A stretch of 38,015 nucleotides of DNA from a virus, in the IMG/VR virus record IMGVR_UViG_3300024581_002691, positions 1 to 38,015 of that record; one strand, given 5' to 3'. The position numbers and the translations under genes are program-made. The notes beneath the pieces were generated by a model that did no database searches, was not told where the DNA came from, and worked only from the letters and a program-made list of their open reading frames with translations. Positions 1,365 to 37,932 of this stretch are shown here, piece after piece. The first letter of the stretch is position 1. Every line of letters begins with the position of its first letter.

Positions 1365-1388
1365 ACAATGGAACAGTGAGGACTAATA

Positions 1389-1676
1389 ATGGCAATACTA
1401 AAGATAGAAGTTAATTCCGATCTACATTACTTTAAAAATGGGATAAAGATTTCAGGCCCAAATCCCGACATGTGGGGCGACCACTCTAAACTAAGTGGGG
1501 ACTGCTCAGGACTAAGCGGAGAATGCTCAGGACTAAGCGGACACTGCTCTTCAAGATTGTGGGGACATTGCACAGGACTAATAGGATTAGTCACAAGGTT
1601 AGCCGGTAACCTAAACCACATTACAGAAGAAATGCGAAGAGAAAATAAAAATATTAGACACTACATCGAGGACTAA
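1389..1676 (+). CDS. hypothetical protein with Cys/Gly/Ser heptad repeats (LSGDCSG LSGECSG LSGHCSS RLWGHCTG)
   Basis: 95-aa ORF. SD GAGGA lies 8 nt upstream. 21-bp DNA repeats at about 1473..1613. The C-terminus ...IED plus stop resembles the C-termini of the DUF4116 genes. Confidence 0.55.
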   Translation: MAILKIEVNSDLHYFKNGIKISGPNPDMWGDHSKLSGDCSGLSGECSGLSGHCSSRLWGHCTGLIGLVTRLAGNLNHITEEMRRENKNIRHYIED

Positions 1677-8767: not shown

Positions 8768-9996
8768 TCAAAGCCTAAAAATTTAATCTCTTGAGTTTGA
8801 GCTGATACAGCAGGAGCACTAGGCTCCTCCGGCAAAAACTCTTCGATATCGAACTCAAGCGGATCCCCTTTGAATTTCCTTAACCGCTTTCCTCTTTCTA
8901 AATCGTTTTTAGCGACCCTTTCGAATCTTTCTAGAATGTTCAAGTTAGCTTCCACTGTATTCCCTAGTTGCGGCCCTACACCCTGCAATAACGCAATATC
9001 AGCATCTGAGAGTACACCTCCACCTAAAAGCTCGTCTTTTCTTCTTAACACAAACTCATTGATAGCAGAGTTTAGCGCTTCTGCATCTGCATCCCTAATC
9101 CCGGGAATCAAACCGCCTGCTTGCTGTCTAGCAGCAGCAAGCCTACCTGTTTTTATTGATTGCAGCGCCTTTCTAAGGGATGATACTTCTTTTAATGTCT
9201 TCTGACCTTGCCTTGCCGCACCAAAAACGGTTTTTCTTAATTCTTGTCGATCTTTAGCAATCTGCGCTTTTGCCGCTCTCGCACCTGCGCCCTCACCGCT
9301 TACCTCTACACCGAATTTCCTCGCTTGTGATATTGCCAATGCTCTATCCGATCCGGTCAGCTCTTCGCCAGCAGGTGATGTTACTCTAGTGCCGCCATCT
9401 TTCAGAACCTGAACTGTTGTACCGTCCGGAAGTATTTCGCTTGACTGTACTTGAGCTGGAGTGACAACATCGCCCTCGTCTTCAAATATAACTCTGCCGG
9501 TCACCGGATCAACGATCCTGCCGCCAACCACAACACCTTTGCTCTGATCAACGGAGCTAGTAAACGCAGCTAACAATTGCCTTGCTTGTTCTCCCTGCCC
9601 GCTTGCGACCAAATCTATAATTTCTTGTGAGTCTGAAGAATCCCGACCTTGTAGTTTAAGCGCGTTTACTCTTCCCTGGTAGAAGTTGAGAAAACCCTGT
9701 TCATTACCTGTTTGTAAGTAATTCAAGCCTACGCGAGCATCACGAATAAAGTCGTTAACACCCTGGGCATCTTTGGCTCTAATCTGCTCCTGAATAGTTG
9801 TGTATAGCTCCGGTGCAATACCGCTTAATTCTTCTAAAGCTTCGCCGCCTCCGGTCCTAAGCGCTTCGCCTGCCAGGGTTCTTGCTCGCTCCTGTCTTCC
9901 CGTTTCTTTGGCTACATCAAACGACCGCTGAAAACGGCCAAGAATATCTGCCGGTTTTTGATTTAATATAGCTTCTGCTAATACTGGTGATACCAT
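8764..9996 (-). CDS. internal virion / ejection-type protein (putative)
   Basis: 410 aa, low-complexity A/G/Q/E-rich, 4-nt overlaps on both sides. Contains LGGGVLSDADIALLQ, which is shared with ORF 19008..19217. Confidence 0.5.
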   Translation of the reverse strand: MVSPVLAEAILNQKPADILGRFQRSFDVAKETGRQERARTLAGEALRTGGGEALEELSGIAPELYTTIQEQIRAKDAQGVNDFIRDARVGLNYLQTGNEQGFLNFYQGRVNALKLQGRDSSDSQEIIDLVASGQGEQARQLLAAFTSSVDQSKGVVVGGRIVDPVTGRVIFEDEGDVVTPAQVQSSEILPDGTTVQVLKDGGTRVTSPAGEELTGSDRALAISQARKFGVEVSGEGAGARAAKAQIAKDRQELRKTVFGAARQGQKTLKEVSSLRKALQSIKTGRLAAARQQAGGLIPGIRDADAEALNSAINEFVLRRKDELLGGGVLSDADIALLQGVGPQLGNTVEANLNILERFERVAKNDLERGKRLRKFKGDPLEFDIEEFLPEEPSAPAVSAQTQEIKFLGFE

Positions 9997-16221: not shown

Positions 16222-17499
16222 TTAAGTGCCGAATAATTGACCTGCAAAGAACGGATTCATCACGCCGTAAGCTGGGCGGAAATCAAAACGAATCTTTTGC
16301 TCGTTTTCTAAGAATCCAACACCCTTAGAAACTCTGAACTGCAAACCGTCTTCAGTGGTTGCAATAGTGTCTGTAGAATGCAATTTCTTGATTGGCACTG
16401 AGCCAATTGAAAACGCTTCTTTATGCCAGAACAGATTAGGCTGTATCAACTTATCCGCTGCGCCACCTAACGTAATAACATCACCTGAAAGAGGGGCTTG
16501 CGAAACAGTATTGTATTGACCGTTGGCTTCAAAAATCGCAGGACCTGTGACGATTAAAGTACCTTCTCCAGCACCACCCAAAGTTACCTCTTCAGTTACT
16601 GTGCCAGACCAAACAACAACATCCCCATTCTCATCGACAATCGGCTTTCTAGTAGAAAGATTAAGACGATTCACACCACCAGCAGCGGCTGTGATAGTGA
16701 CGGTTTCACCAGCTGCAACCACTAAGTTAGCTTCAAAGCCGGTAACCGCCATTTGCTGGGTCATAGTATCCTTAGCTGCTAAATAAGTAACAACTGGATT
16801 AGCGCTCAACGTACCATCTCTGTCGGCACCAGTTCCGGTCGTGTGACTAGATAACGTAGTCGCCGTCATTACTTTCATACCAGCGAAATTTTCTGTGATA
16901 GTAGCTTTCTGATTCGCTGTCATAGCTCCAGTCTCACCACCTAGAGAGCGCTGGTCAGATGCTAATTTACGCTGCGTGAATGGATTAACGACACAACACC
17001 AGACATTATCCATTGGAACCCCAGATGCTTGCATAACTGCACCAGCTTCAGCAACCTCATCCCAATTTGTGACACCAGTCCCCACGGTCCCAGCCAATAG
17101 AGCGGTATTCCTCTTCACAAAATCGGCAAAGTCTAGCTCTAGATCGGTTTTTATTCGAGTCGCCATGGGGGCTAATAACTCGTCTATCTGATCCATCTTG
17201 ATGGCTTCATCGGCTTCATCATAATCAACAAATGCCGTGAAATAATTCTGAACTACCCCTGATGCTTTACCTGTGATGATATCAGAAGGAGTATCCCCTG
17301 AAACATCACCTTTGGGCGTCCTAACCGTTACATAGTCTGTGGGTCTCTTAAAATCAACAGTATCTCCAGTTGACGGGTTAAACTTACCGGACAATAGTTG
17401 AGTGTTAACGTTCTTACTAATCACCCTATCATTGTCAAACTTCTCTAAAAAAACTCGCGCTAGAGGGCGCGTAATATTACTCTCGAAATCATTAGCCAT
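16222..17499 (-). CDS. major capsid protein (P22 coat-like)
   Basis: 425 aa, directly downstream of the scaffold-like gene and upstream of the adaptors. Followed by a terminator hairpin. N- and C-terminal regions resemble the P22-type coat family. Confidence 0.8.
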   Translation of the reverse strand: MANDFESNITRPLARVFLEKFDNDRVISKNVNTQLLSGKFNPSTGDTVDFKRPTDYVTVRTPKGDVSGDTPSDIITGKASGVVQNYFTAFVDYDEADEAIKMDQIDELLAPMATRIKTDLELDFADFVKRNTALLAGTVGTGVTNWDEVAEAGAVMQASGVPMDNVWCCVVNPFTQRKLASDQRSLGGETGAMTANQKATITENFAGMKVMTATTLSSHTTGTGADRDGTLSANPVVTYLAAKDTMTQQMAVTGFEANLVVAAGETVTITAAAGGVNRLNLSTRKPIVDENGDVVVWSGTVTEEVTLGGAGEGTLIVTGPAIFEANGQYNTVSQAPLSGDVITLGGAADKLIQPNLFWHKEAFSIGSVPIKKLHSTDTIATTEDGLQFRVSKGVGFLENEQKIRFDFRPAYGVMNPFFAGQLFGT

Positions 17500-17510
17500 C
17501 TGACTAACTC

Positions 17511-18308
17511 CTATTCAAATGTGGCACCTTTTGGCCCCCGCTGCTTCACGGGTGCTCCCATGCCTTCGACACGGGTAGCAGGCTTCGGCGCGTTGCTGGT
17601 TTTTGGTTTGAGAGAAGCGGCTTTTTGCTTAATTCCAGCAAGCATAACTCCAGCTTTAATTGGGTCAGCATTGACAATATCGTATAAATCTACCGGATTA
17701 GCGGCTAGATATTGCGTCATTAGCGGGCCGTCCGAGTCTTCAAGCAAATGCGTTGCGAGCTGCGGACTTACGCCGTAATCGACAATCGCATTTTGCGCTT
17801 TATCTAAAGCTTCTTGTGACACGCCTAGTTTTTTGCTGTTCTCTAAAAACTGAGACTGCAATGCTTGCGAACGCTCAAGCTCTTTTCTCTCTCTATCTCT
17901 TTGTGCTAAGGCATCGGCTTCTCTGCGTTGTGCAGCGTGTGCTGATGCTTGAGCTTTACGTTCGATAGCTTCTTCACGCTTACGCAATTTCTCCTCGTAA
18001 TCATCATCCCAAGAATCAGGACGAGGCGGGATTGTTACGTCATCGACAACAGTATTTTTGCTTTCTAGCTCTTTTAGACGCTGCTCTAGCTCTTCAGCTT
18101 TACGCTTCGCTTTTCGTGCTTCGAAAGCCTTTTCCGCTGTTCGTTTGCGCTCTTCTGCTATACGATCCTCTTCCGTAGGCTGCGGTTGAGCCGCTTCACC
18201 CGCTTGTTCCTGTTCGACTTGTTCGCTTTCAGCTTGTTGTTCTACTACTTCAGCATCTTGCGCAACATCGTTTTCTAGCTCTGTCATAGCTGTATTCTCC
18301 AGCATCAC
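17511..18308 (-). CDS. scaffolding protein
   Basis: 265 aa, highly charged Glu/Gln/Ala/Lys/Arg coiled-coil composition. Immediately upstream of the capsid gene. The start is GTG 18308 or ATG 18305. Confidence 0.7.
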   Translation of the reverse strand: MMLENTAMTELENDVAQDAEVVEQQAESEQVEQEQAGEAAQPQPTEEDRIAEERKRTAEKAFEARKAKRKAEELEQRLKELESKNTVVDDVTIPPRPDSWDDDYEEKLRKREEAIERKAQASAHAAQRREADALAQRDRERKELERSQALQSQFLENSKKLGVSQEALDKAQNAIVDYGVSPQLATHLLEDSDGPLMTQYLAANPVDLYDIVNADPIKAGVMLAGIKQKAASLKPKTSNAPKPATRVEGMGAPVKQRGPKGATFE

Positions 18309-18358
18309 TTAATTAGTCAGTGTGGGACATCGAGATATTGGTCTCGTACCGTGGTTAA

Positions 18359-18367
18359 AATATATCA
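18359..18367 (-). promoter_or_regulatory. candidate extended -10 promoter (TGaTATATT) for scaffold and capsid genes
   Basis: The minus strand reads ATATGATATATT about 50 nt upstream of the scaffold start. A near-identical ATATGATATAAT lies upstream of the first late gene (28868..28876). Confidence 0.3.
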
Positions 18368-18476
18368 TATATGAATACTATTGTGACGGTTTAACCGTTA
18401 GGGAATATCTATGCGATGAATTAGTACTATTGTGGTAGTATTTTATGTGGATTAGTCCTAAGCTTGGGGAAAGAAA

Positions 18477-18857
18477 ATGGTCAAACAAGAAAGTAACATG
18501 AAAGATAGTGATGATAATGAAGTGCTATTCGAGAGCCACGAGCTTTGCTACAAAATGTATGTGAATTCATCGGATTCCATATTTTGGTTTATTAATCTAT
18601 TAGCTACGTCAAAGCTGAACGGTAGCACAAGTATTTGTCGCATTCCAACTTTCTGCCCAGGGTTCTACCACTGGGATCCAATAGTAGAACCCTACGTTAT
18701 TGAACGATATAAATTCTTCCTGAGCGGGCGCGGAGAAAAACCATCACCAGTTTGGCTTACCGAATCCGGCGGTGAACATGCGATGGATATATTTAATATA
18801 ATTAAAGACTATTGCGATGAGCAACAAGATAAAGGAGAAGATGAAAGTGGAAAGTGA
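18477..18857 (+). CDS. hypothetical protein, first gene of an opposite-strand operon embedded in the late block
   Basis: 126-aa ORF. The GGGGAAAGAAAATG initiation region resembles those of early genes (GAGGAAACGAAAATG). Confidence 0.5.
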   Translation: MVKQESNMKDSDDNEVLFESHELCYKMYVNSSDSIFWFINLLATSKLNGSTSICRIPTFCPGFYHWDPIVEPYVIERYKFFLSGRGEKPSPVWLTESGGEHAMDIFNIIKDYCDEQQDKGEDESGK

Positions 18858-19011
18858 TGATTATAAATTAGCGTTATTAAAGAAAAAAGAGAGGGAAATA
18901 GAGAATCTTAAAGAAGCAAACCGATTGTTAAAAAAAAGACTGATATTAAAGCTCAAGGAATACAACATTGATGTTAGCAATCTTGAGAATAATGGAGAAG
19001 ACAACAAATGA
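18841..19011 (+). CDS. small coiled-coil protein (hypothetical)
   Basis: ATG 18841 is preceded by AAGGAG. Sequence MKVESDDYKLALLKKKEREIENLKEANRLLKKRL. Open from 18817. Confidence 0.45.
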   Translation: MKVESDDYKLALLKKKEREIENLKEANRLLKKRLILKLKEYNIDVSNLENNGEDNK

Positions 19012-19217
19012 ACAACACTATATTTTACGCATTGGGAAAGCGCCCACAACCGTTAAACAAAAAAGGAATAGAGCGAGAATTTGCCGATTTTGTAAAGAGA
19101 AATATGGAGGAGAACGTGGATAGACGAAAATTAGGCGGTGGTGTACTTTCAGATGCAGATATTGCTTTGTTGCAAAAAAAGGCGTTATCTAGACAAGCAG
19201 GTCATCTTAACTTCTAG
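19008..19217 (+). CDS. 69-aa protein carrying peptide segments identical to capsid (FADFVKRN) and ejection-type protein (LGGGVLSDADIALLQ) segments
   Basis: ATGA coupling to the upstream ORF. Differences from the two donor genes are almost all synonymous third-position changes. Confidence 0.55.
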   Translation: MNNTIFYALGKRPQPLNKKGIEREFADFVKRNMEENVDRRKLGGGVLSDADIALLQKKALSRQAGHLNF

Positions 19218-19331
19218 ATCAATAGAGCGATCTGAACGCTTAAACTGCAAGATACACTCACCATCTTTCGCGAGAGTGTCTTTTATTTCTAGTCGCTTGT
19301 CGTTCAAGTCTTTAGATGTGTATGTTTTCAT
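19185..19331 (-). CDS. 48-aa hypothetical protein (weak Phd/YefM-like N-terminal pattern)
   Basis: ATG 19331 overlaps the stop of the upstream gene (ATGA). Sequence MKTYTSKDLNDKRLEIKDTLAKDGECILQFKR. The 3' end overlaps the convergent ORF 19008..19217 by 33 nt. Confidence 0.4.
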   Translation of the reverse strand: MKTYTSKDLNDKRLEIKDTLAKDGECILQFKRSDRSIDLEVKMTCLSR

Positions 19332-19651
19332 GCTGATCTCTTTTGGACGCCAAGATAATCCCTTATAGACTCCCAGATTTGACACTCTTCATCGCCTGCC
19401 TCATCATCTACGATCACCCAGACATCATTCATTTCAACCCCAGCTTGGGTGTGTATCTGTTTGTATTTATCGATCAATTCTTTATCGTCAAATTGACCGC
19501 TTTGAAGAAATACGCTGCTGTACCGTTTTTCACCTAGGAACTTTCCGTCTATTCTTATAGAAGATCTTTCACTTGTCTTTGATATTCTGTAGCTTGCTTT
19601 GTCGTTACCGAATATTAAGTCGGTCTTTAACAATCTTAGAAGATGTTTCAT
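19328..19651 (-). CDS. 107-aa hypothetical protein translationally coupled to portal
   Basis: ATGA overlap with the portal stop at 19648..19651. No recognisable motif. Confidence 0.5.
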   Translation of the reverse strand: MKHLLRLLKTDLIFGNDKASYRISKTSERSSIRIDGKFLGEKRYSSVFLQSGQFDDKELIDKYKQIHTQAGVEMNDVWVIVDDEAGDEECQIWESIRDYLGVQKRSA

Positions 19652-21834
19652 GTGCTTATCTTTTCCTGCTGCTCAACAACCATATCGGCCTGCTGCTTAT
19701 AAGCTTCGGTATTCGATGGCCCAACGATAGCATCAACACCCATCGCATCACGTAGCTTGTTTAATGTATCAGCTTGCATGTTAAGCACTTCGTAAACCTG
19801 AGCTTGTCCCTGCAATGTAGCTTCAAGCGCTTTCTGCTGCTGCTCTGATTGCTGTGCTTGCTGCTTCATGAATAGCATAAGCTCTTCCATTTGCAGCTTC
19901 TCTGCCTGGTTCTGTGCTGCTAATAAGTCTTTCTGTTCCTTTATGCGCAACTCTTCTTGCTTGAGAACTGCTCTAGCTTGTACGTCTGCTGTCTCTGCTT
20001 GTACGCGCGAAAGCTCAGCTTCTGCAATCTTATCCTCAGGCGTCGGCTCTGGCGGTTGTTGTTGAGCAAGCGCTTGTGCTTCTTGAATCTCTTCTCTCTC
20101 TTCATCGGTTAACTGATTCTCTGGAATCATGCCATTTTTAAGCATTTGTCTACGTATACGCTCGGCAACAACATCTACACCAGGCGCTGAAATATTCTTG
20201 AGCACGATATCAGCAGACATTTCACCAACACCTGGAACATTCTGCGCCAACGCTTGTATAGCTTGTACTGATTCGTCTTGTCGATTCTTGAAAGCTTCAC
20301 CCGCTTTACACGTTACATCATATATACCTTGAGACAAGTCGTTCAACACCACTTCTTGCTTGGTATCGAAATCATACACAGTCTTATTAATGTCTATCAT
20401 TTCATAAGAACCATCCTCATTGATAATACGCTTTTGTGCTGTGTAATCCAACAAATTTGGCATTGACTGTACTAGTAGTTTTCCAGTTGCGTTGATAGCT
20501 ATTTCAAGCGGGGTGAAATACTTAATCGTTCCTGTGTCTGCCCGTGCGTTAAGCGCATTGATAGCGACACCTGATAATTGTTGATCAATATCACCATTTT
20601 GCAGTGGAGCACGTACCGAAGTAGCTTGTATATCTTCGATGCAGTTTTGTACTAATTGCTGTATGCCAGGGCTGACCGTAGGCCCTCCAGTCCGGACTGG
20701 AGGGCCAGGAACAGCGGGATCATTATCATATAGATAGAGTCTTTGCGCACTAACAGACATTCTTAACGCTGCGTCAAGCTTTGCTCCTTTTAGCTGCTCG
20801 TTAGTAGCCCAAAAGATATCAGGCGGTGATAGAGCTACGTCTCCAGTTTCCCTAGACCTACCATAGTTATAAACTCTCTGAGGGTCCATTAACTTCTCTA
20901 TAGCGCCGTGATAAATAATCTTACCTTCACGGACTTTAAAGTTAGCGTAAACCGGGATGACCGGCAGCCCTCTAAATACCGTCTCTTCTTCTGAGTCTCC
21001 TAGAAATCCGCCGCCGTCGAACATACGACTATATACTTTAAAGCTTTCCTTCTTTCGCTCTTGTTTAACCGTAATCCCTTGTTCAGCTAGCTCATCGACT
21101 ACTTGTTCAAACTTCTCATCACGCTCATATACTGAGCCATCAGTCATTTGTACTAACTGCTTAATATACGGTTTCTTATAGATAAAACGGCCAACAGTTA
21201 CATATTCGGGTTTATGCTCGTAATAATCCCAACTTCGATCATCATCAACAGATTGCCTAGAGCCATTGGGGAATCTAGACTCATACTCATCCGTCGTTAT
21301 CTTATCGAGTATGAACACAAATCGAGCGTCACTCATGTCCTGCTGCAATGCGCCCTGATCAAACCACACTCTATTTTCGTAATCAGTAATCCACTTGATG
21401 ATGAAGTCTTGTTCAAACGAATCACCATCAACATAATCTACGACAACCTCCCAGCCAGCTAAACCTGCTGCTACGCACTCCCTTCCCGCTGAGGCGTATA
21501 CATATTCAGCGTTACTTATATTCTCGATATTGCGTATCAATCCTTCATAAGTTCGTGCTATTTCTTTCGTCGCATCCCCACCAGCGGGCTTAACTTGTAT
21601 GCCGAAATCCGCACCATCAATTTCACCGGCTATGCCGTCCACAACTGGCGTGCATTTATCAAATGTATAACGCGGCCTTCCCTCCATCCTTCTGATGATT
21701 TCTGGCTCCCACTGCCCATCTTTCTGATCGATAAACGCATGAGCCTCGCGCACTTTCTGACGCTGATCGCTCTCATTATCTTGAGCTTTTTGTAGCTGAT
21801 CTTTAACTTGAAATATATCGCTATAATCAATCAT
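19648..21834 (-). CDS. portal protein (P22-like, with long C-terminal helical barrel region)
   Basis: 728 aa immediately after the large terminase. N-terminal DGQWEPEIIRRMEGRPRYTFDKC matches portal family motifs. The C-terminal ~150 aa are Gln/Glu/Ala-rich coiled coil. Confidence 0.85.
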   Translation of the reverse strand: MIDYSDIFQVKDQLQKAQDNESDQRQKVREAHAFIDQKDGQWEPEIIRRMEGRPRYTFDKCTPVVDGIAGEIDGADFGIQVKPAGGDATKEIARTYEGLIRNIENISNAEYVYASAGRECVAAGLAGWEVVVDYVDGDSFEQDFIIKWITDYENRVWFDQGALQQDMSDARFVFILDKITTDEYESRFPNGSRQSVDDDRSWDYYEHKPEYVTVGRFIYKKPYIKQLVQMTDGSVYERDEKFEQVVDELAEQGITVKQERKKESFKVYSRMFDGGGFLGDSEEETVFRGLPVIPVYANFKVREGKIIYHGAIEKLMDPQRVYNYGRSRETGDVALSPPDIFWATNEQLKGAKLDAALRMSVSAQRLYLYDNDPAVPGPPVRTGGPTVSPGIQQLVQNCIEDIQATSVRAPLQNGDIDQQLSGVAINALNARADTGTIKYFTPLEIAINATGKLLVQSMPNLLDYTAQKRIINEDGSYEMIDINKTVYDFDTKQEVVLNDLSQGIYDVTCKAGEAFKNRQDESVQAIQALAQNVPGVGEMSADIVLKNISAPGVDVVAERIRRQMLKNGMIPENQLTDEEREEIQEAQALAQQQPPEPTPEDKIAEAELSRVQAETADVQARAVLKQEELRIKEQKDLLAAQNQAEKLQMEELMLFMKQQAQQSEQQQKALEATLQGQAQVYEVLNMQADTLNKLRDAMGVDAIVGPSNTEAYKQQADMVVEQQEKIST

Positions 21835-21838
21835 GTTG

Positions 21839-23365
21839 TTACCACAATGACTTGTAGTTTAATTCGTAATCGTCTTTATCTAAGCTGACCGGCTCAGCAT
21901 GCGTAATTGCTAAAGCATCACCCTCATCTGGCGAGAAACCGTACAGCTCTTTTATCTTCTCTTTTCTGTGCAAACAAATTCTATCGTGACTGTCTCTACT
22001 ATACGGAGAAGCGGATAAATCAGCGTGCAGCGTGTCGGAGTCTGGTATTTCGACATCCAAGTTTTCATCAGATAACCAAGCATTAAGCTCTCCCCACATT
22101 TCTGCGCGTTTATTCTTATATTTTTCATCATTAAGCGGACTTGAACCGAACGCTATAGCCTTTACTCTGTCTTCATATCCTAGCTCATGCAGTCTATCTA
22201 CTATCTCAGAGCCACCGCCAGCATCGATGAACATCATATCCGGCTTTTTCTTAGCGACCGGACATACTTCATCTAATACAGCTTTACATTTAGAAACCGC
22301 TTTACCCAACTTATCAACATCTGCACCAACCCAACTTCTAAGATCATACGCTTTTCGCCCACATCGCTTAATCATACTGAATCTATCACCGCCTCGCGAT
22401 GGATCGACTCCGACTATCAACGGGCCTGACGTGCTGACTTTCTTATGCCTAGCTTTAAGTATAACCTCAGGCTTTATGAGTCCATCCTCACCAGTAACTT
22501 GGAAAGCTTCAACAGGATTACACGGGTATTCTTGCTTAAACGCTTTTTCCCCATCCATCCCACCCGAAGCCAACTCGACAATCTTCTTCCTGCGCCAATA
22601 TATTTGCTGATATGTTAAGTTGTATTGGCTTCTTAGTTCTTCTTCGTCTTTGCTTATAACAAAATCGTCAGGTATCTTTCTAGCGTATTCGTCTTGCCAA
22701 AACCATGGAACGAAAATAGGTATGAAATCACTCTCTCCATGCTCTGCTGCTTTCCACTGCTCGTGAAAGAAGTTACCTATTCCATTAGCTGTTGATTCGT
22801 AGATTATCTCCGTGCCTGGGGAATTTGGGACAGTTTGCAGTATTCCTTTTGCATGCTCTGCCGCGTTGGGCCAAAACGCTACCTCTGAACCATGGAAAAA
22901 TTGGTTCGTCTGTGATCGACCGACCGACTTGTTGCCCGCTGTACCTATTTTATAACCGCTGTCTAGCTGATCAAATACAAGCTCTTTTGAGTTACTAGCA
23001 GAGATTGATGGCTTAACAGGCTCTGGCAAATTATCATAATAACGCTTTGCCATTTCGAACAGATTTTGAGACGCTGTATCTTCGTGCGTTAATATAAAAG
23101 CTCTAACACCGACGTTGTGCGACACTTTCCAGATGAAGCGAGCTTCGACATAAGTCGAGCATCCCTGTTGACGTCCCTTCAGTATTATCGCTCTAACATA
23201 ACCTTGGCTTTTATATTGCTCTTCTAACCTGTCGTGTATGTATTTTTGCGCTTGATTAAACTGTAGGTTTTGCTGCTTTTCTTTGCCGCGAATGACTAAG
23301 CATTTCTTAGCATAGAACTCCATGTCATTTTTTAATTTAAGTCTTAGTGCTGACTCATTCATCAT
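21839..23365 (-). CDS. terL: terminase large subunit
   Basis: Walker A-like LKGRQQGCST. Nuclease-domain motifs VGVDPSRGGDRFS and MFIDAGGGSEIVDRL. Size and position upstream of portal fit. Confidence 0.85.
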   Translation of the reverse strand: MMNESALRLKLKNDMEFYAKKCLVIRGKEKQQNLQFNQAQKYIHDRLEEQYKSQGYVRAIILKGRQQGCSTYVEARFIWKVSHNVGVRAFILTHEDTASQNLFEMAKRYYDNLPEPVKPSISASNSKELVFDQLDSGYKIGTAGNKSVGRSQTNQFFHGSEVAFWPNAAEHAKGILQTVPNSPGTEIIYESTANGIGNFFHEQWKAAEHGESDFIPIFVPWFWQDEYARKIPDDFVISKDEEELRSQYNLTYQQIYWRRKKIVELASGGMDGEKAFKQEYPCNPVEAFQVTGEDGLIKPEVILKARHKKVSTSGPLIVGVDPSRGGDRFSMIKRCGRKAYDLRSWVGADVDKLGKAVSKCKAVLDEVCPVAKKKPDMMFIDAGGGSEIVDRLHELGYEDRVKAIAFGSSPLNDEKYKNKRAEMWGELNAWLSDENLDVEIPDSDTLHADLSASPYSRDSHDRICLHRKEKIKELYGFSPDEGDALAITHAEPVSLDKDDYELNYKSLW

Positions 23366-23992: not shown

Positions 23993-26890
23993 TTAACCCC
24001 TAACTGTCTTTCTGATTGTTGTTCTCATTGTCATTCTTATTGTTTTACGTGTCGAATCGTCTGGCGGTGCTGAAGCATTTTTAATAACGGCAAATGTAGT
24101 GTCACCATCTTCGTCAACATTTGCAGATACCTCTATAGATCTTAACAAGACCCCGACTAGGTCATCACCTTCCTCATTGACATTGGCAGACAACTGAGAA
24201 GGCGAGCTTATTATTGCTGATTGCACATCTCCGGCTTCATTAACGAGCGCATTCAGAAAGGATATGTTACCGATAGCAGCTAGAGTGGCATCCCCTTCCT
24301 CCATAATATTAGCATCTAATACTACAGTAGTTTCTAGAGACGCGGACAACAAATCCCCTTCTTCTGTTTGATTTGCTGACAAAATAGAGGCGTTACCAAT
24401 GACGGCAAACGTGGTGTCGCCTTCCTCGTTGACATTTGCTGCTATCTTGACTGGAGTAATGATTGTAGCAAGTACTGCATCACCCTCCTCGTTGATACTA
24501 GCAGAGACCGAAGCAGGAACGGATATAGTTGAATTAGTTAGATCACCCTCTTCAATGATGTTAGCGGTAAGCACAGATGGCACTTGTATGCTTGCGACTA
24601 GGCCATCACCTTCTTCCACCAAGTTTGCGGATATAACAGCACCAGAGTCTACGACGGGAGGTTCTGTACTGTATGGGTGAGTTGCCGGTAACTTACCTTG
24701 AGCTCCCCATTTCCACGCTAGATACCCAGTGAGTTGATCTAACAAATCCTGAGAAACGAGGGAGTTTATTAATATAATTTCCCCTAGAGATCCGTTGTGT
24801 AAAACACCGGCCGTACTTGTTGCGCACAGGTCAGTGTAGGAAAGAGTAGGGGCTGCCGCTGCGACATTAGACCCTGTGGCACCGTCGATATCAACTCTTA
24901 TATTTGATGCGTCTCTAACAGTAGCAGCGACAATATCTCCTGTTAACGTATTCGAGCCGTGCGACTCGAACCCTGACTCCGTTTTGGTATAAATAACATT
25001 ATCCGTTTCCCACCATAATGAGTACCTAGCATCACCGACTGCTTCGTTACCCATCATTATCGATCTAATGCCCGTCGTTGCACGGTTAAATATGCTTATG
25101 ACGGTCATATCATTAGTAAGAGTAATACTTGAAGTAAGATTAAAATAATCATTACTACCGTCAAAATCTAACGCGTTCCTAGACTGTATCGTCACTGAGT
25201 TGGTGAGTGGCTGACTAGATCCTGTCGTTTGAGTTGCATCGTTATTATTACCTGACTTATCATCCCACTGACTGACAAGACCTCCGGATTCTGTGATGGT
25301 TGCTGCATCATCTGCGTCAAACCACAAATCGGTGGTAGCTTCAGATGGGGTCCACGCATTATTAATAGGGGGGTATGCTTTATATCGATGATCTGCTGAC
25401 AATGATGACTGAGTGCCCCATTTCCATGCTAGATAACCCTCTACCATTTGCCTATCTGCATCCGACAGAACACTGTCGAATATCATGATCTCTGACATGT
25501 TACCGATAAACGGTAGCGTCCCACCACTGTTGAACCCGATATGTAACTCTAACGTTGAATTCGCAGTTGAAACAGAAAAAGCATAATTACCGTTGACACT
25601 ATCTGTGCCATTCGTATATCCAGCGTAATCGGGATTACGGGCGGTAGAGTTTTCAAAAGACAATATGATAGGTGATTGTGCGGGGAAAAGCCCATTAGCA
25701 GTTTCGTCGACGACTGGGGACTGTCCTGAGACACCTTTGGTTATGATTACTACGTATGCATCATTATCAGATTGCGACGCCCTATCATCGTAGCCTATTA
25801 GGAAACCTACATTAACACTAGAGCCATTATTATTATGTACCAAGTATGAAAAATTATTTAGATTAGCTACCGTAACTTCACATACCGCAAATATTGTTCC
25901 TCCGGTGCCATCATGAAGGTATTTAAATGCTGACTTAGACCCACTATCAAGCTTCAAGAGATCCGAATTAAACGCAATGGTGTTGAGTCCGTTCATCGTG
26001 TTTGATCCGGTTCCTGGCTGCAAAGATCCTACGGACTGAGAAACGTGGTTATTATTGCCGCTTTTATCATCCCATTGGCTGACAGCACCAGCAGACTCAG
26101 TAATAGTTGCTTCATCATCAGCATCCAGCCACAGGTCAGTTGATATTTGCGATGGCGTCCACAGGTCTATAGTAGGAGCTGATGCTTTGTATGGATGACC
26201 GCCAGGGAGATTAGCCTCTAGGCCCCATTTGTGAGCAAGATACCCCTCTACCTTTTGTCTAGAAGACTGTAGCATAACCCCATCAACGATTAGGGTTTCC
26301 CCAACATCTACACTAGAAGCAACCCCAAAAGATAGCATCCTTCCAATTGAAAAAGATGTGTTAATTGTTGCTATACCAGCTGTTGCATTGTTGACAACTT
26401 GGGTGCCATTTCTCCACACATTAAAGACACTGCCAGACCTTTCTATGGCTAATAGATCCTCATCAGCAACCGAAATATTAGCTATATTTGTGTAAGATCC
26501 GCCATATATCCTAACTATTGAGCTGTCTATTTGTAGATAAAACCTTGGCGCGGCGGTTGCGTTATCAGTTGTTATAATGGATGCATTAGTGACAGCAACT
26601 GAATTATATCTTACTAAAACGAAAACAGTTGAGTCTGTTGCAGGAACCACAGGAGAAAGTCTGATTAGGTTGTCGTTAACTCCATCAAAACTTAATGCAT
26701 TAACCCCGCCTATTGTCACCGAATCAGTTATCGGTTGATTTGCGGATGTTCCTTGGGATAAATCATTACCATTGCCGGACTTATCTTCCCATAAGCTGAC
26801 CGATCCCGAGACCTCAGTGATCGTGCTACTATCATCAGCATCAAGCCACAAATCAGTAGTTATATACTTAGGAGACCAGACGGCCATCAA
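23993..26890 (-). CDS. 965-aa protein with three LamG / concanavalin-like (Laminin_G_3-type) domains, nine 21-aa EEGD repeats and a basic RKTIRKTV tail
   Basis: W(S/T)P..I.TDLWLDADD...W.DKSGN.N...Q....QP recurs three times. Each copy ends in VEGYLA(H/W)KWG....LP..H.YK. Confidence 0.7.
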   Translation of the reverse strand: MMAVWSPKYITTDLWLDADDSSTITEVSGSVSLWEDKSGNGNDLSQGTSANQPITDSVTIGGVNALSFDGVNDNLIRLSPVVPATDSTVFVLVRYNSVAVTNASIITTDNATAAPRFYLQIDSSIVRIYGGSYTNIANISVADEDLLAIERSGSVFNVWRNGTQVVNNATAGIATINTSFSIGRMLSFGVASSVDVGETLIVDGVMLQSSRQKVEGYLAHKWGLEANLPGGHPYKASAPTIDLWTPSQISTDLWLDADDEATITESAGAVSQWDDKSGNNNHVSQSVGSLQPGTGSNTMNGLNTIAFNSDLLKLDSGSKSAFKYLHDGTGGTIFAVCEVTVANLNNFSYLVHNNNGSSVNVGFLIGYDDRASQSDNDAYVVIITKGVSGQSPVVDETANGLFPAQSPIILSFENSTARNPDYAGYTNGTDSVNGNYAFSVSTANSTLELHIGFNSGGTLPFIGNMSEIMIFDSVLSDADRQMVEGYLAWKWGTQSSLSADHRYKAYPPINNAWTPSEATTDLWFDADDAATITESGGLVSQWDDKSGNNNDATQTTGSSQPLTNSVTIQSRNALDFDGSNDYFNLTSSITLTNDMTVISIFNRATTGIRSIMMGNEAVGDARYSLWWETDNVIYTKTESGFESHGSNTLTGDIVAATVRDASNIRVDIDGATGSNVAAAAPTLSYTDLCATSTAGVLHNGSLGEIILINSLVSQDLLDQLTGYLAWKWGAQGKLPATHPYSTEPPVVDSGAVISANLVEEGDGLVASIQVPSVLTANIIEEGDLTNSTISVPASVSASINEEGDAVLATIITPVKIAANVNEEGDTTFAVIGNASILSANQTEEGDLLSASLETTVVLDANIMEEGDATLAAIGNISFLNALVNEAGDVQSAIISSPSQLSANVNEEGDDLVGVLLRSIEVSANVDEDGDTTFAVIKNASAPPDDSTRKTIRMTMRTTIRKTVRG
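24056..24622 (-). repeat. nine tandem 63-bp (21-aa) coding repeats, consensus (V/I)NEEGD....A.I......SAN
   Basis: Read from the translated protein, aa 757..945 of the 965-aa ORF. Confidence 0.8.
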
Positions 26891-28041: not shown

Positions 28042-28824
28042 CTAAATAACAGTTTTTGTAACAGTTTTACGTATTGTCTTGCGTAGTGTGCCTATTATAT
28101 CTCCTGCAGCAGACTCCGGCGGAGAGTCTTTATACGGGTGGCCTGGGGGTAATCTTGATTCTAGACCCCATTTCCAAGCCATATAACCTACAACTATATC
28201 TATATCATCCTGTACGATAGCACCGTTTATTATAAGTGCTTCGCCTATTGCTCCCTGATGATAAAACAACGATGTTAACGTCCTACCAATCACACTAAAA
28301 GTGGAGCTGGGGGTTTCACCTGTATTTATAGTAATTCCATTTGAACCAAAGAAATCAACCCTTGCAGATGTACCCCTGATCACTGTAGCGGTCAAAAAAC
28401 TACCGAATTCTATGTTAAAATCATGAAAATCTATAGCACTGTCTGTTTTAGTGTAATAGTTGTCGTCTGAATCCCATAACAGTGACGTCCTATAATCGCC
28501 AAAAATCTCACCGAATATTTGTGACACTATAAGATCGCTAGGCCTGCTGAAGACATTAACAATAGTCATATCATTAACTAGACTGTAAACACTGCTTAGT
28601 GTCAAATAGTCATTTACGCCGTCGAATTCTATTGTATTTAAGCCGCCTATAGTTACAGTATTTGTGGCGGGCTTGTTTGCCTCCGTTGTTTGATTAGCAT
28701 GCTTATTGTTTCCGCTCTTGTCGAGCCAGCTGCTAACGGCACCCGAGCTTTGAATTATCGTACCGGAATCAGCTGCGTCGTACCAAATTTCTGTATTTAT
28801 CTCCTCCGGTGTCCAAAGCGCCAC
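28042..28824 (-). CDS. single-domain LamG / concanavalin-like protein, paralogue of the 965-aa protein, first gene of the leftward block
   Basis: GTG start. ALWTPEEINTEIWYDAADSGTI...WLDKSGNNKHANQ...VVGYMAWKWGLESRLPPGHPYK. C-terminal LRKTIRKTVTKTVI. Confidence 0.65.
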   Translation of the reverse strand: MALWTPEEINTEIWYDAADSGTIIQSSGAVSSWLDKSGNNKHANQTTEANKPATNTVTIGGLNTIEFDGVNDYLTLSSVYSLVNDMTIVNVFSRPSDLIVSQIFGEIFGDYRTSLLWDSDDNYYTKTDSAIDFHDFNIEFGSFLTATVIRGTSARVDFFGSNGITINTGETPSSTFSVIGRTLTSLFYHQGAIGEALIINGAIVQDDIDIVVGYMAWKWGLESRLPPGHPYKDSPPESAAGDIIGTLRKTIRKTVTKTVI

Positions 28825-29000: not shown

Positions 29001-29034
29001 ACACTTACTAACTTAAACAACTGGAGAAAAGAAA

Positions 29035-29313
29035 ATGGCTATAATTTTACTATCTATAATTATGATTATATTTGGCGCTATTATTGCTGTACACCACAAA
29101 TTTAATGATCATATACAAGTTTTAGGTGGCTTTCTTAGTATAGCCGCAACTATTTCTCTTATTTTTACATGCATTTTTTTTATAGGCTCAGTAAACCACG
29201 CAGGACTTGTCAATAAGAAATGCGGAACAAGTTACACGGGTTCAGATTTTTTTTACTCATCTGGATTAATCGATGAATTCTTGAAAAAAGAATGCACTAA
29301 CTTAAACAAATGA
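29035..29313 (+). CDS. small membrane protein (2 TM), first early gene
   Basis: 92 aa with two hydrophobic segments. SD GGAGAAAAGAAAATG. Confidence 0.55.
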   Translation: MAIILLSIIMIIFGAIIAVHHKFNDHIQVLGGFLSIAATISLIFTCIFFIGSVNHAGLVNKKCGTSYTGSDFFYSSGLIDEFLKKECTNLNK

Positions 29314-29323
29314 GGAAACGAAA

Positions 29324-29431
29324 ATGGCGATAAAAGATAATCTATTTAAAACCTACATCGGTAAAAAAGTTGTGATCCGGTTAACAGTACTCGAAGATGC
29401 TATCCAGGCTTTCAACGACATGGAGATATGA
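29324..29431 (+). CDS. 35-aa hypothetical protein
   Basis: Not in the ORF track because it is under 60 aa. Its initiation region GAGGAAACGAAAATG is identical to that of gene 32912. ATGA coupling to the next gene. Confidence 0.4.
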   Translation: MAIKDNLFKTYIGKKVVIRLTVLEDAIQAFNDMEI

Positions 29432-32878: not shown

Positions 32879-32911
32879 ACTGATACTACATAAATAACCG
32901 AGGAAACGAAA

Positions 32912-33265
32912 ATGAACGATGAAAAATATTCTAGTCGAGTTGAAATAGAGAAAAAAGAAAAATGGCTTGATTGGGTAGACGAAATACCTTACTTGAATTT
33001 TGATCCTAATTGGGATGTATCAATTATTCCACCATTTATGTATGCGATGGTTAGATTTAAGGTTAAGTCTGGCGAGGGATTTGTTAGTGTTTATTTGGAT
33101 TGCCACAACAGCTTAGGATATTTCGATGGGCCGTATTGGGAAATTTACCCTTTTCATGATGACGTTTACAGAGTCCAGATAAACGATACAGAAAAATTAA
33201 TGGCTGTTATATCAGAATCTCTTAACTATCAAAACAACTCGAAAGAAACCGAGAAAACATTATGA
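32912..33265 (+). CDS. hypothetical protein (module 1, globular partner)
   Basis: 117-aa ORF with initiation region GAGGAAACGAAAATG. Confidence 0.55.
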   Translation: MNDEKYSSRVEIEKKEKWLDWVDEIPYLNFDPNWDVSIIPPFMYAMVRFKVKSGEGFVSVYLDCHNSLGYFDGPYWEIYPFHDDVYRVQINDTEKLMAVISESLNYQNNSKETEKTL

Positions 33266-33435
33266 ACATAGCAATCATGGCGGCTGCAAAGCCTGGCACT
33301 CAATATCATTCTAGTTCAGGGCCTAGGTACGGTTCTCGGTACGGGTCTCGTTCTGGGCGCTCGCTTGGGTCTCACTCTAAGTCTTATTCTAAGTCTTGGT
33401 ATTGTTCAGCGTCTGGACCTAAAGCAGGCAATTAA
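33262..33435 (+). CDS. 57-aa basic Ser-X repeat mini-protein (MNIAIMAAAKPG...SGPKAGN)
   Basis: Not in the ORF track. ATGA overlap with the upstream stop. N- and C-termini are conserved with 34686..34874. Ser is almost always TCT. Confidence 0.5.
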   Translation: MNIAIMAAAKPGTQYHSSSGPRYGSRYGSRSGRSLGSHSKSYSKSWYCSASGPKAGN

Positions 33436-33464
33436 AAGTTAACTTAACTAAAGAGGAAAAAACT
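33430..33464 (+). promoter_or_regulatory. conserved 35-nt spacer with T7-epsilon-like TTAACTTAA plus SD GAGGA (copy 1)
   Basis: AATTAAAAGTTAACTTAACTAAAGAGGAAAAAACT; two further near-identical copies exist. Confidence 0.6.
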
Positions 33465-33848
33465 ATGGACATAGATGATTTAACATACGGTCAAATCAAA
33501 CAATTAAGCAATCTTTTCAGCAATAATAACATTAGCAATAATCATGGCTTAAACTTCCATGTAGGTAAGAAAGTTATCATTAGGACTTTATCCGCTGGAG
33601 TTTGGTTCGGTAAGATCGAACAAAAATGTGGAGAAGAGGTTATTGTAAAAAACGCGCGTAGAATGTACTCATGGAAAGCTAAAAAATCAATCTCACTAAG
33701 CGGTGTAGCAAAATACGGAATTGATCAAAAAAATAGCCGCATAGCTCCTGCTGTCGATAACGAATGGCTTGTTGCTATTGAATTGATCGGATTAACTGAT
33801 GCAGCAATAGAGTCAATAGAAACAGCGGCTGAAGCTGAGGCCTCGTAA
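33465..33848 (+). CDS. conserved phage protein of unknown function (module 2, globular partner)
   Basis: VGKKVIIRTLSAGVWFGKIE...VKNARRMYSWKAKKSISLSGVAKYG resembles a widespread uncharacterised phage family often found beside ssb. Confidence 0.6.
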   Translation: MDIDDLTYGQIKQLSNLFSNNNISNNHGLNFHVGKKVIIRTLSAGVWFGKIEQKCGEEVIVKNARRMYSWKAKKSISLSGVAKYGIDQKNSRIAPAVDNEWLVAIELIGLTDAAIESIETAAEAEAS

Positions 33849-34063
33849 TGTCTTATTTAGATAAACCAGAAGAAAATGGCGATGGCGATGGCTCTGGCTC
33901 TGGCTATGGCTCTGGCTCTGGCTATGGCTCTGGCTCTGGCTATGGCGATGGCTATGGCTCTGGCTCTGGCTATGGCTCTGGCTCTGGCTATGGCTCTGGC
34001 GATGGCGATGGCTATGGCTCTGGCTCTGGCTCTGGCTATGGCTCTGGCTCTGGCTATGGCTAA
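33848..34063 (+). CDS. 71-aa (Gly-X)30 low-complexity protein with nine GYG motifs
   Basis: TAATG overlap with the upstream stop. The frame choice is uncertain because all forward frames are open. Confidence 0.45.
   Translation: MSYLDKPEENGDGDGSGSGYGSGSGYGSGSGYGDGYGSGSGYGSGSGYGSGDGDGYGSGSGSGYGSGSGYG
33878..34060 (+). repeat. 183-bp hexanucleotide array (GGC-TCT / GGC-TAT / GGC-GAT)
   Basis: Read directly: 30.5 units with no deviation from GGC at every second codon. Confidence 0.9.
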
Positions 34064-34076
34064 TCAATAATCCGGC

Positions 34077-34111
34077 AATTAAAATTTAACTTAAACAAAG
34101 AGGAAAAAACT
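34077..34111 (+). promoter_or_regulatory. conserved spacer with epsilon-like TTAACTTAA plus SD (copy 2)
   Basis: AATTAAAATTTAACTTAAACAAAGAGGAAAAAACT. Confidence 0.6.
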
Positions 34112-34423
34112 ATGAGTACATTTGAATCACCCTACCGCGTTGGTAAAAAATACGTATTTCGCACAGTAACGCAATGTGTAATTGGAGAAATCACAGCGAT
34201 TGTAGGCACCTTTGCTGTGTTGAAACATGCTTCTTGGATTGCTGACACTGGCAGATATCACAACTTCTTTAAAAGCGGTGCTACTGCTCAAGACCTTACT
34301 GAGATAGAGCCGTATCCAGATTGTGAAGATGAAGAGTTTGGCGTTTATAGTTGCACAGTTAATCTTGCGTCTCTTACAGATGCTGGACCTTGGCAACATG
34401 ATTTGCCGCGAAATCAGAAATGA
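34112..34423 (+). CDS. hypothetical protein, shorter paralogue of 33465..33848 (module 3, globular partner)
   Basis: RVGKKYVFRTVTQCVIGEITAIVG aligns with HVGKKVIIRTLSAGVWFGKIEQKCG. Confidence 0.55.
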   Translation: MSTFESPYRVGKKYVFRTVTQCVIGEITAIVGTFAVLKHASWIADTGRYHNFFKSGATAQDLTEIEPYPDCEDEEFGVYSCTVNLASLTDAGPWQHDLPRNQK

Positions 34424-34695
34424 ACGTGGTGATGATGGGGGCTGCAAAGCCTGGGGGTAGGTCTTTGTCTAGGTGCAGGTCAGGGTCTAGGTGGTATTCT
34501 TGGGCTAGGTCTATTTCTCGGGCTAGGCATGAGTCTAGATTTTGGGCTAAATCTAGTTCGTGGGCTAGGTCCTTGTCTAGGTCTTGTTCTAGATCTAGGT
34601 CTTGGTCTAGGTATAAGTATTCTGTTAGATATTGGTCTGTTTACTTTTCTTGCCATAGGCCTGGTTATAGGTCTAGGAGTACATCATGCACGTAG
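34420..34695 (+). CDS. 91-aa basic Ser/Arg/Trp repeat protein (MNVVMMGAAKPGG...)
   Basis: ATGA overlap with the upstream stop. N-terminus conserved with the two paralogues. TCT-AGG hexamer periodicity. Confidence 0.5.
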   Translation: MNVVMMGAAKPGGRSLSRCRSGSRWYSWARSISRARHESRFWAKSSSWARSLSRSCSRSRSWSRYKYSVRYWSVYFSCHRPGYRSRSTSCT

Positions 34696-34874
34696 CAATG
34701 ATGGCAGTTAAAAAGCCTGGCTCTAAATATGGCTCTATTTATATATCTATGTCTAGGTATAGTTATATTTGGTCTTATGTCGGGTCTAGATATAAGTCTA
34801 GGTCTAAGTTTAAATGTTTTTTTAGATATGGCTCTTGGTTTTGGTCTAAGTCTGGACCTAAAGCCGCAAATTAA
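34686..34874 (+). CDS. 62-aa basic Ser/Lys/Tyr/Trp/Phe repeat protein (MHVAMMAVKKPG...SGPKAAN)
   Basis: Both termini are conserved with 33262..33435. 10-nt overlap with the upstream paralogue. Confidence 0.5.
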   Translation: MHVAMMAVKKPGSKYGSIYISMSRYSYIWSYVGSRYKSRSKFKCFFRYGSWFWSKSGPKAAN

Positions 34875-34898
34875 AATTTAACTTAAAAGAGGAAAAAC
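34869..34898 (+). promoter_or_regulatory. conserved spacer with epsilon-like TTAACTTAA plus SD (copy 3), in front of ssb
   Basis: AATTAAAATTTAACTTAAAAGAGGAAAAAC. Confidence 0.6.
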
Positions 34899-37339: not shown

Positions 37340-37512
37340 TGAAGCTTAGAAAATTAATGGCAACGAGAAATCGTTATAGAAAAACTTGTGACATGATAAC
37401 AGAGGCGGAACCTGCCATGATCATAGAAAATGAGCGTAAATGCATTGTAGATAATTTGGTCGCTACAAGGTGGGATTATTATAAAAGCGATAAACTGAAA
37501 ACTGAGGAATAA
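37336..37512 (+). CDS. 58-aa hypothetical protein
   Basis: Not in the ORF track. ATGA coupling to the upstream stop. Its stop sits in GAGGAATAAACATG, feeding the next gene. Confidence 0.45.
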   Translation: MMKLRKLMATRNRYRKTCDMITEAEPAMIIENERKCIVDNLVATRWDYYKSDKLKTEE

Positions 37513-37514
37513 AC

Positions 37515-37928: not shown

Positions 37929-37932
37929 ACAA

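Follow-up and report, generated by a model that had tools for sequence, protein, structure and literature searches.

Late-operon insertion cassettes and mosaics formed by illegitimate recombination are already well known in phages. The late operons of phages of the lambdoid and P22-like groups reportedly carry morons, which are independent insertion cassettes, and novel or mosaic genes are said to arise by illegitimate recombination at the boundaries of phage modules. In the sieB/esc system of P22 and lambda, a truncated in-frame product reportedly antagonises the full-length protein, and the CpmB protein of SaPIs is said to carry the C-terminal capsid-binding motif of the helper scaffolding protein.

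Ejection proteins of the gp20 type assemble into a periplasmic tube that is homo-oligomeric, its subunits probably being extended and held by lateral self-contacts, and intragenic mosaicism of P22-type ejection proteins has been documented (PMC10461980; PMC8954989). Escape from the exclusion exerted by the phage-encoded SieA maps to the C-terminal region of P22 gp20 (PMC10461980; PMC8954989), the genetic target of SieA exclusion being the C-terminal region of the ejection proteins gp20 and gp16 (PMC10461980). No class of small ORFs put together from in-frame pieces of two distinct virion genes is known to have been described. Here, we analyse such an ORF, ORF69, which comes from a single metagenomic genome.

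Results

Genome of a marine P22-like podophage

The window, that is, the whole 38,015-nt stretch of DNA analysed, is a complete phage genome, of which bases 1-48 recur at 37968-38015. Its virion genes are of the P22 type and lie on the minus strand (Table 1), and its plus-strand early region carries replication and recombination functions. No integrase or repressor was found among the ORFs scanned. The nearest isolate is Pseudoalteromonas phage H6/1, with a coat identity of 66%, and the nearest metagenomic coat protein is 83% identical, no closer relative by this measure being present in any collection searched. The phage is a marine P22-like podophage.

On synteny only, the 410-aa product is assigned as the ejection protein in the gp20 (middle) position, and its counterpart in H6/1 is annotated as such. 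Members of this gp20-position family were defined as full-length proteins of ~390-440 aa whose genes lie between the gp7-like and gp16-like genes. The 410-aa protein matched no curated family or solved structure, and no relatives of the family were found in 185,000 reference genomes or in GenBank phages. A PDB profile search with the family and a Foldseek search with its model returned only uncharacterised phage proteins and nothing informative.

Table 1 Features of the phage genome that bear on ORF69, with positions in the window
Feature	Position	Strand	Remarks
Large terminase gene	21839-23365	-	P22-type virion gene
Portal gene	19648-21834	-	P22-type virion gene
o107, small late-strand ORF	19328-19651	-	Between portal gene and cassette; convergent with ORF69
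Hairpin (19249-19282) plus U-rich run	19249-19291	+	Candidate cassette terminator; centroid structure
ORF69	19008-19217	+	69 codons plus stop
Ejection core in ORF69 (LGGGVLSDADIALLQ)	19131-19175	+	38/45 nt to 9027-8983; 0/15 amino-acid changes
Decayed left flank in ORF69 (EENVDRRK vs NEFVLRRK)	19107-19130	+	15/24 nt in register, then 9-nt deletion
Coat-derived tract in ORF69 (codons I21-M33, EREFADFVKRN)	19069-19104	+	32/36 nt to 17141-17106
GGAG Shine-Dalgarno-like site	18994-18997	+	10 nt upstream of ORF69 start; read from sequence
o64, second cassette ORF	18817-19011	+	Real start may be 18841 or 18847; stop overlaps ORF69 start
o126, first cassette ORF	18477-18857	+	Orphan; C-terminus weakly similar to that of o107
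Scaffold gene	17511-18308	-	P22-type virion gene
Coat gene	16222-17499	-	P22-type virion gene
Coat-gene segment matching ORF69	17106-17141	-	Residues about 120-132; includes V128-K129-R130
Head-completion genes		-	P22-type virion set
Three ejection-type genes, in order 353 aa, 410 aa, 598 aa	8764-9996 (410 aa)	-
Source segment in 410-aa gene, N313-Q338	8983-9060	-	Core 8983-9027; DEL codons 9028-9036; flank 9037-9060
Tail fibre or spike gene		-	P22-type virion set

ORF69 closes a plus-strand cassette in a hypervariable gap

ORF69, the quoted translation of which proved exact, is the last gene of a plus-strand cassette of three ORFs, o126, o64 and ORF69. GC skew and AT skew both change sign across 18350-19250, as expected of plus-strand genes, and the GC content is 0.33-0.41 across 18200-19250 vs 0.44-0.49 in the scaffold, coat and portal genes, a drop that, like the skews, fits genes with a separate origin. 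ORF69 carries gene-like signals. The ATG and the stop codon of o64 overlap (ATGA), as is evident from the sequence itself, and codon-usage log-odds are positive solely in the annotated frame for the three cassette ORFs, as well as for o107 on the other strand. The captured tracts described below supply 18 of the 23 bits of the ORF69 coding score, and the N- and C-terminal parts are without a coding signal of their own. ORF69 contains neither a signal peptide nor a membrane segment.

The candidate terminator lies 32 nt past the ORF69 stop; its z-score is unremarkable, and its loop of 12 nt made a simple scan miss it. Shuffled sequences contain promoter-like hexamers as often as does 18773-18802, and neither the promoter-like nor the terminator-like matches of the cassette rise above background. 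The neighbouring o107 shows sub-threshold similarity to T4 gp19-type tube proteins.

The gap between the portal and scaffold genes is a hypervariable site in this phage group. In loci L101 (1244 to 1314) and L104 (302 to 365) it is empty, the scaffold gene coming straight after the portal gene; in L082, L084 and L085 it is filled by 2-8 small, unrelated ORFs, and in phage H6/1 by four opposite-strand ORFs. Among ~90 related P22-like loci, no small ORF between portal and scaffold shares at least 8 consecutive residues with a structural gene, the sole long-range shared peptides there tracing to a repeat at a contig end (L033) and to a local duplication (L069). As no comparable shared peptides occur in these loci, a general habit of the phage group was rejected.

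The sequence-only reading had proposed a blastn/tblastn comparison with the genome and with relatives. Within the genome both matches were recovered, and no homologue of ORF69 was found elsewhere: the query was the sole match in 5.8 billion protein clusters as well as in 1.84 billion HMMER representatives, and IMG/VR, JGI metagenome contigs and GenBank phages yielded none. Likewise, o126, o64 and o107 had no homologues in the collections searched. Back-translated FADFVKRN met only unrelated FADFVKSN matches in IMG/VR, and VLSDADIALLQ and GGG[VI]LSDADI were absent from IMG/VR and gave chance matches only in metagenome contigs. ORF69 matched nothing in Pfam, PHROGs, PADLOC or NCBIfam, anti-defence and defence families included, and Rfam and tRNA scans were empty. 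The usual proof of function, conservation among relatives, is thus unavailable for the cassette, an orphan everywhere searched.

ORF69 is a chimera of two virion-gene fragments

The central 36 codons of ORF69 are chimeric: the first 13 derive from the coat gene and, two bases further on, 8 + 15 from an ejection gene. The two captured tracts thus adjoin, 2 nt apart, and both are in the sense orientation and in the reading frames of their sources. Neither match is due to chance, and two such matches adjoining, in sense and in frame within a 210-nt ORF, are far beyond chance. The two parts also differ in age, as follows.

The coat-derived part was correctly recognised from the octapeptide FADFVKRN, which is identical to coat residues 124-131. 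Paired with its source segment, it forms the inverted repeat that ranks first in the window in both length and quality (E = 4e-5 in blastn-short against the 38-kb genome). The nucleotide identity, put at about 35/42, comes to 33/42 by hand count, 32/36 being the strongest aligned stretch. Of the changes reported for this tract, the synonymous GTA/GTG and AGA/AGG are real, and four amino-acid differences over the 13 aligned codons (ORF69/coat: I/L, R/L, E/D and M/T) had gone unmentioned. The D to E change hits a position invariant in 119 coat homologues. With four amino-acid vs two synonymous changes, the tract bears no sign of peptide constraint.

Four relatives have coat genes from which the coat tract is far more distant than from the resident one: ORF69 and the resident gene share GCC-GAT-TTT-GTx-AAG-AGx-AAT, and the four relatives read GCT-xxx-TTT-ATG-ATG-AAR-AAY. 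Among the 119 homologues, position 128 is M in 118, position 129 is M or L in 116 and position 130 is K in 110. The V128-K129-R130 of the resident coat is unique to its lineage and forms the most atypical patch of the protein, which the ORF69 tract spans; V128 itself belongs to the only three coat residues that no homologue has, and to the four that are unusual at well-conserved positions. As judged from these alignments, the coat tract is young and resident-specific, stemming from a recent exchange with the phage's own coat gene. The chance that a random 12-codon copy of the coat gene spans V128-K129-R130 is about 2-3%, as estimated from the lengths of tract and coat, which suggests a link between the tract and the patch. 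One possibility is gene conversion from the ORF69 copy to the coat gene, bringing three changes at once; another is that repeated conversion keeps the coat gene and the ORF69 copy alike.

For the ejection-derived part, the 15-residue match LGGGVLSDADIALLQ was confirmed and corresponds to residues 324-338 of the 410-aa protein. Recomputation gave the same 38/45 identical nucleotides, with all seven differences (C/T, T/A, T/C, A/T, T/G, G/A, A/G) falling at third positions without changing the amino acid; the blastn-short match to the genome spans 44 nt (E = 4e-5). Moreover, the homology reaches 24 nt further upstream (E.V.RRK), beyond a 9-nt deletion of the D-E-L codons, and a match as good as the 15/24 of this left flank is reached by only 13 of ~76,000 genome positions. 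A gapped tblastn alignment to the ejection protein covers ORF69 residues 20-56. The right edge of the core is sharp, with nothing recognisable in ORF69 after Q338. The C-terminal LSRQAGHLNF of ORF69 can be set beside LTRVASGLNI of one related ejection protein (L053), a likeness too weak to use (E about 0.06-0.08).

The captured block is the most conserved stretch of the ejection family. In nine homologues with 36-64% overall identity, NEFVLRRKDELLGGG[VI]LSDADIALLQGVGPQLGNT is near-invariant, and the longer stretch SAINEFVLRRKDELLGGG[VI]LSDADIALLQGVGPQLGNT is almost invariant. The core DNA was compared with the genes of five of these homologues, from other phages, to which 39, 38, 35, 32 and 30 of 45 nt are identical; the core therefore differs by 7 nt from the resident gene and by 6, 7, 10, 13 and 15 nt from the other five. 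Genuine ejection genes differ among themselves by 7-14/45 nt in the core, and the synonymous divergence of the ORF69 core is at the level found between phages whose ejection proteins are 58-64% identical. The V329 type of the ORF69 copy recurs in the resident gene and in three of the four homologues nearest to it; the ejection protein of L101 has V329, but valine in place of alanine at 335. On these comparisons, the ejection tract is not a recent copy of the resident gene; it is merely one more member of a set saturated at synonymous sites, and is either a paralogous fragment of old date or was captured from a relative that has not been sampled.

ORF69 is a fragment-derived relative, not a member, of the gp20-position ejection family. 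It matches residues 313-338 (possibly 299-338) only, at another locus and on the opposite strand. Compared with the family signature [RK]KDELLGGG[VI]LSDADIALLQGVGPQLG, it has kept LGGGVLSDADIALLQ intact and lost DEL; of the invariant residues, F315 and L317 have given way to others and P342-Q343-L344-G345 is missing.

Selection on the peptide and predicted fold

The synonymous-only pattern had been read as selection on the peptide in both copies. As stated, this argument fails, because the block is near-invariant throughout the family: the divergence from the resident gene (7/45) is like that from other phages (6-15/45), so the pattern, one to be expected of any family member, is by itself no proof of selection on ORF69. 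Since the core is as diverged as it is between genuine genes, the synonymous changes can predate the capture and have accumulated in bona fide ejection genes.

Usable evidence is confined to a comparison within ORF69. No residue of the core is changed (0/15) vs three of eight in the left flank (Fisher p about 0.03 over 23 codons). In this flank ORF69 has replaced N313, F315 and L317 and lost D321-E322-L323, positions at which close family members are identical. The F to N and L to D replacements turn hydrophobic residues into polar ones and take three nucleotide changes each, which fits a buried helix that has become solvent-exposed. The intact core next to a decayed flank thus favours constraint on the ORF69 peptide, in a manner that is suggestive but not decisive: the flank changes could stem from the joining event itself, and the intact core could reflect recent capture from an unsampled family member.

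The AF2 single-sequence model of ORF69, of low confidence (pLDDT 66), has a disordered segment (1-17), a helix (18-41), a loop (42-48, LGGGVLS) and a second helix (49-65). The parent 410-aa protein is modelled by AF2 with a helix at 305-323, a loop at 324-330 and a helix at 331-339, so that the same helix, LGGGVLS loop and helix are predicted in both proteins.

Discussion

A possible mimic of the ejection-protein block

For ORF69, we infer translation, selection, a binding partner and a biological role along the following lines. The reading that we favour, tentatively and at a probability short of even, is that ORF69 is a translated helix-loop-helix mimic of the ejection-protein block. The cassette o126-o64-ORF69 would be expressed and ORF69 translated as a small soluble helix-loop-helix protein, in which purifying selection would keep the 15-residue ejection block. 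Because ORF69 is a free copy of the most conserved helix-loop-helix of the ejection family, and as such a natural competitor, a capping or poisoning mimic is favoured, which would compete as a free-standing unit for whatever the ejection block binds. The simplest targets would be the lateral self-contacts of gp20-type tube subunits or the docking site of the block in procapsid assembly. Lacking a signal peptide and a membrane segment, ORF69 cannot meet incoming ejection proteins in the periplasm; its action would be in the cytoplasm, on newly made subunits of the phage itself or of a co-infecting relative. As a result, the phage's own ejection protein may be held back, or that of a co-infecting relative poisoned.

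It is nearly as likely that ORF69 is a young, functionless chimera, produced by illegitimate or microhomology-mediated recombination in an insertion hotspot and bound to be lost, its frame being open solely because both pieces are coding sequence in the sense frame. That the whole island is unique to this genome and sits in a gap that is hypervariable across the group is in keeping with such an origin, and the phage encodes recombination proteins of its own (an SSB, a protein of the NinB/Orf-like kind and an HNH nuclease resembling Ref). Family-wide invariance of the block accounts for the synonymous-only pattern, the coat tract has taken radical changes (L to R, and D to E at the invariant position), and the ORF69 termini show no coding signal. 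However, a core left untouched beside a partly decayed flank implies time under constraint, and the start is translationally coupled to o64 and provided with a Shine-Dalgarno site. Two fragments of different age have, moreover, landed in one frame of one ORF, and the position of the coat tract on the most atypical coat patch hints at continuing exchange rather than a dead scar.

A selected dual mimic, in which ORF69 would show both the self-association block of the ejection protein and the coat spine-helix segment and act as a poison subunit directed at relatives in the same cell, or as bait for host sensing of virion proteins, is unlikely. Gene conversion with the phage's own coat gene would then keep the coat part current, which would explain V128-K129-R130.

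An RNA function, whereby minus-strand late read-through would pair with the coat and ejection mRNAs and tune late expression, is very unlikely. Its targets would be the coat segment 1.9 kb downstream and the ejection segment 10 kb downstream, with RNase III sites or long-range structures as the outcome. The antisense idea of the sequence-only reading holds in so far as the copies are opposite-strand inverted repeats with strong predicted duplexes, of -47 kcal/mol (36 nt) and -70 kcal/mol (69/78 nt) vs -11 and -27 in shuffles; the two synonymous differences in the coat tract are U:G wobbles, so that 34/36 positions can pair, which makes this tract the better fit to pairing. A plus-strand cassette transcript is sense to both mRNAs and cannot pair with them, and minus-strand read-through is needed. 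Such read-through is plausible, as the late genes on both sides lie on the minus strand with no evident minus-strand terminator, but a promoter-like site at 18359-18387 (minus strand), upstream of the scaffold gene, could make it needless. Third positions are not preferentially conserved: the ejection core differs at 7 of 15 of them, and only two of the seven mismatches are wobble-compatible. Selection for pairing predicts excess identity to the resident gene, whereas the core is no closer to it (38/45) than to other phages (30-39/45), the opposite of the expectation. In addition, cleavage within the coding parts of the coat and ejection genes would come at a cost, and there is no Rfam match.

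Conserved virion proteins can trigger bacterial immunity, as in the recognition of the T4 Gol peptide by Lit, of the major capsid protein by CapRel, and of portal and terminase by Avs. An anti-defence decoy, which headed the roles proposed in the sequence-only reading and in which ORF69 peptides would bait a host factor (sensor, protease or chaperone) specific for the coat spine-helix segment or the ejection block, is nevertheless very unlikely: the copied coat residues do include V128, the only near-invariant position uniquely changed, beside the rare K129 and R130, clustered as expected of escape mutations, but ORF69 matches no known anti-defence or defence family, and presenting the same epitope as the trigger would activate an abortive-infection-type sensor, not quench it. 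Three further identities were rejected, namely a CRISPR mini-array or repeat-spacer unit (the tracts are 2 nt apart with no flanking direct repeat), a diversity-generating retroelement (the differences are not adenine-specific, and no reverse transcriptase occurs among the ORFs scanned) and an assembly artefact (assembly errors yield exact repeats, not diverged in-frame ones).

Implications

If ORF69 is functional, captured fragments of virion genes can be recycled as stand-alone mimics, a simple route to new accessory genes. Such mimics would interfere with the assembly of the ejection tube or capsid or with host sensing of these proteins, and would offer a way to find the interaction surfaces of the poorly understood ejection proteins. 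A dual mimic, if true, would be a first case of a phage interference or decoy protein made from the phage's own structural-gene fragments. If ORF69 is functionless, it still records cleanly how a gene is born in a phage insertion hotspot. The locus also warns that, where a block shared by an ORF and a resident gene is invariant in its family, purely synonymous differences between the two do not prove selection on the ORF.

Comparison with known systems

The cassette resembles a moron in that it separates two genes, portal and scaffold, that are neighbours in the relatives L101 and L104, has a GC content below that of its flanks, its own orientation and a terminator-like hairpin, and varies in content among relatives. 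Its promoter and terminator are candidates only, and expression from a prophage is doubtful, as the ORFs examined include no lysogeny module. Unlike that of a moron, its content is no foreign accessory gene; it is chimeric, made of the kinds of virion gene that the phage itself has.

As in mosaic genes, short unrelated tracts have been joined in ORF69 without long homology and with a sharp boundary, and ejection genes are known to swap sub-gene modules. ORF69 differs from them in that its pieces, of 36-69 nt, derive from two different virion genes and lie on the opposite strand in a new small ORF, not exchanged between orthologues.

With SieA, ORF69 shares the status of a phage accessory gene and a connection with the gp20-position protein, its block coming from residues 313-338 of 410; unlike SieA, it has no membrane segment and resembles its own putative target. 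As in sieB/esc, a protein fragment would modulate the full-length protein, but esc arises from an internal start in the same gene, whereas ORF69 is a separate, diverged copy at another locus.

Finally, ORF69 differs from the SaPI protein CpmB in being encoded by a phage, not a satellite, and in taking its motif from ejection and coat proteins, not from a scaffold. Like CpmB, it is a small (predicted) helical protein with a virion-assembly motif that would compete for the same partner as the protein from which the motif came.

Circular completeness and repeated elements of the phage genome

The first 48 bases of the window are repeated exactly at its end (37968-38015), and this terminal overlap indicates that the assembly is circularly complete. 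The contig itself had no match in scans of IMG/VR and JGI metagenome contigs; its proteins are present in the protein database. The circular junction is flanked on each side by an array of tandem repeats, whose 66-bp units are ~62-86% identical to the reference copy and are translated into 22-residue protein repeats. The sole matches of the two encoded proteins were PHROGs of unknown function.

Repetition also marks other parts of the genome. A conserved leader, ACTTAAACAA..GAGGAAA..AAAATG, precedes several plus-strand early ORFs and looks like a common translation-initiation or regulatory motif. Upstream of the terminase genes, two ORFs lying 1.2 kb apart both match PHROG 10356 ('virion structural protein'), and the longer of them carries internal repeats ~710-810 nt apart.

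Features of the phage genome, with positions in the window
Feature	Position	Strand	Remark
Tandem-repeat array, 66-bp units	696-1391		Within ORF 741-1364
Coat codons 128-130	17115-17123		Atypical patch of coat protein
Near-palindrome, 35 nt	18659-18693		Within o126
C-terminal half of o126	18696-18827	+	Weakly similar to o107 half (pairwise comparison)
o107	19328-19651	-	Small ORF after portal gene
C-terminal half of o107	19340-19477	-	Weakly similar to o126 half (pairwise comparison)
965-aa ORF	23993-26890	-	PHROG 10356 match
260-aa ORF	28042-28824	-	PHROG 10356 match
Leader motif sites	29011-29041, 29300-29330, 32888-32918, 33422-33488, 34069-34135, 34833-34886		Before plus-strand early ORFs
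Low-complexity coding repeats	33847-34098		GDG/GSG/GYG repeat ORF 33848-34063
Low-complexity coding repeats	34454-34860		12-18-nt GGTCT(A/T)-type units, several small early ORFs
Tandem-repeat array, 66-bp units	37458-37955		Within ORF 37515-37928

Small ORFs of the portal-scaffold gap and the coat patch

Two small ORFs of the portal-scaffold gap, o126 and o107, show weak similarity between their C-terminal halves (pairwise E = 0.002; 26% over 46 residues). These halves are opposed to each other, with o64 and the 69-codon ORF69 in between, and may be the trace of an old inverted duplication inside this island. The near-palindrome of o126 reads AGGGTTCTACCACTGG GAT CCAATAGTAGAACCCT, so that similar peptides are encoded by both strands.

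o107 may be a second ORF of the gap derived from a virion-gene fragment; its similarity to T4 gp19-type tail-tube proteins is sub-threshold (Pfam PF06841, E = 0.004, 17 bits; TIGR02241, E = 7e-5, 23 bits). A tail-tube-like similarity is odd in a podophage.

The atypical patch of the coat protein consists of three adjacent residue changes, each due to a single nucleotide, which fall within the tract common to the coat gene and ORF69. Gene conversion from ORF69 is a possible origin of the patch, as is an adaptive cluster. Residues 128-130 are V-K-R here versus M-M/L-K in the homologues (n = 119), none of which has V128 and 118 of which carry M at this position.
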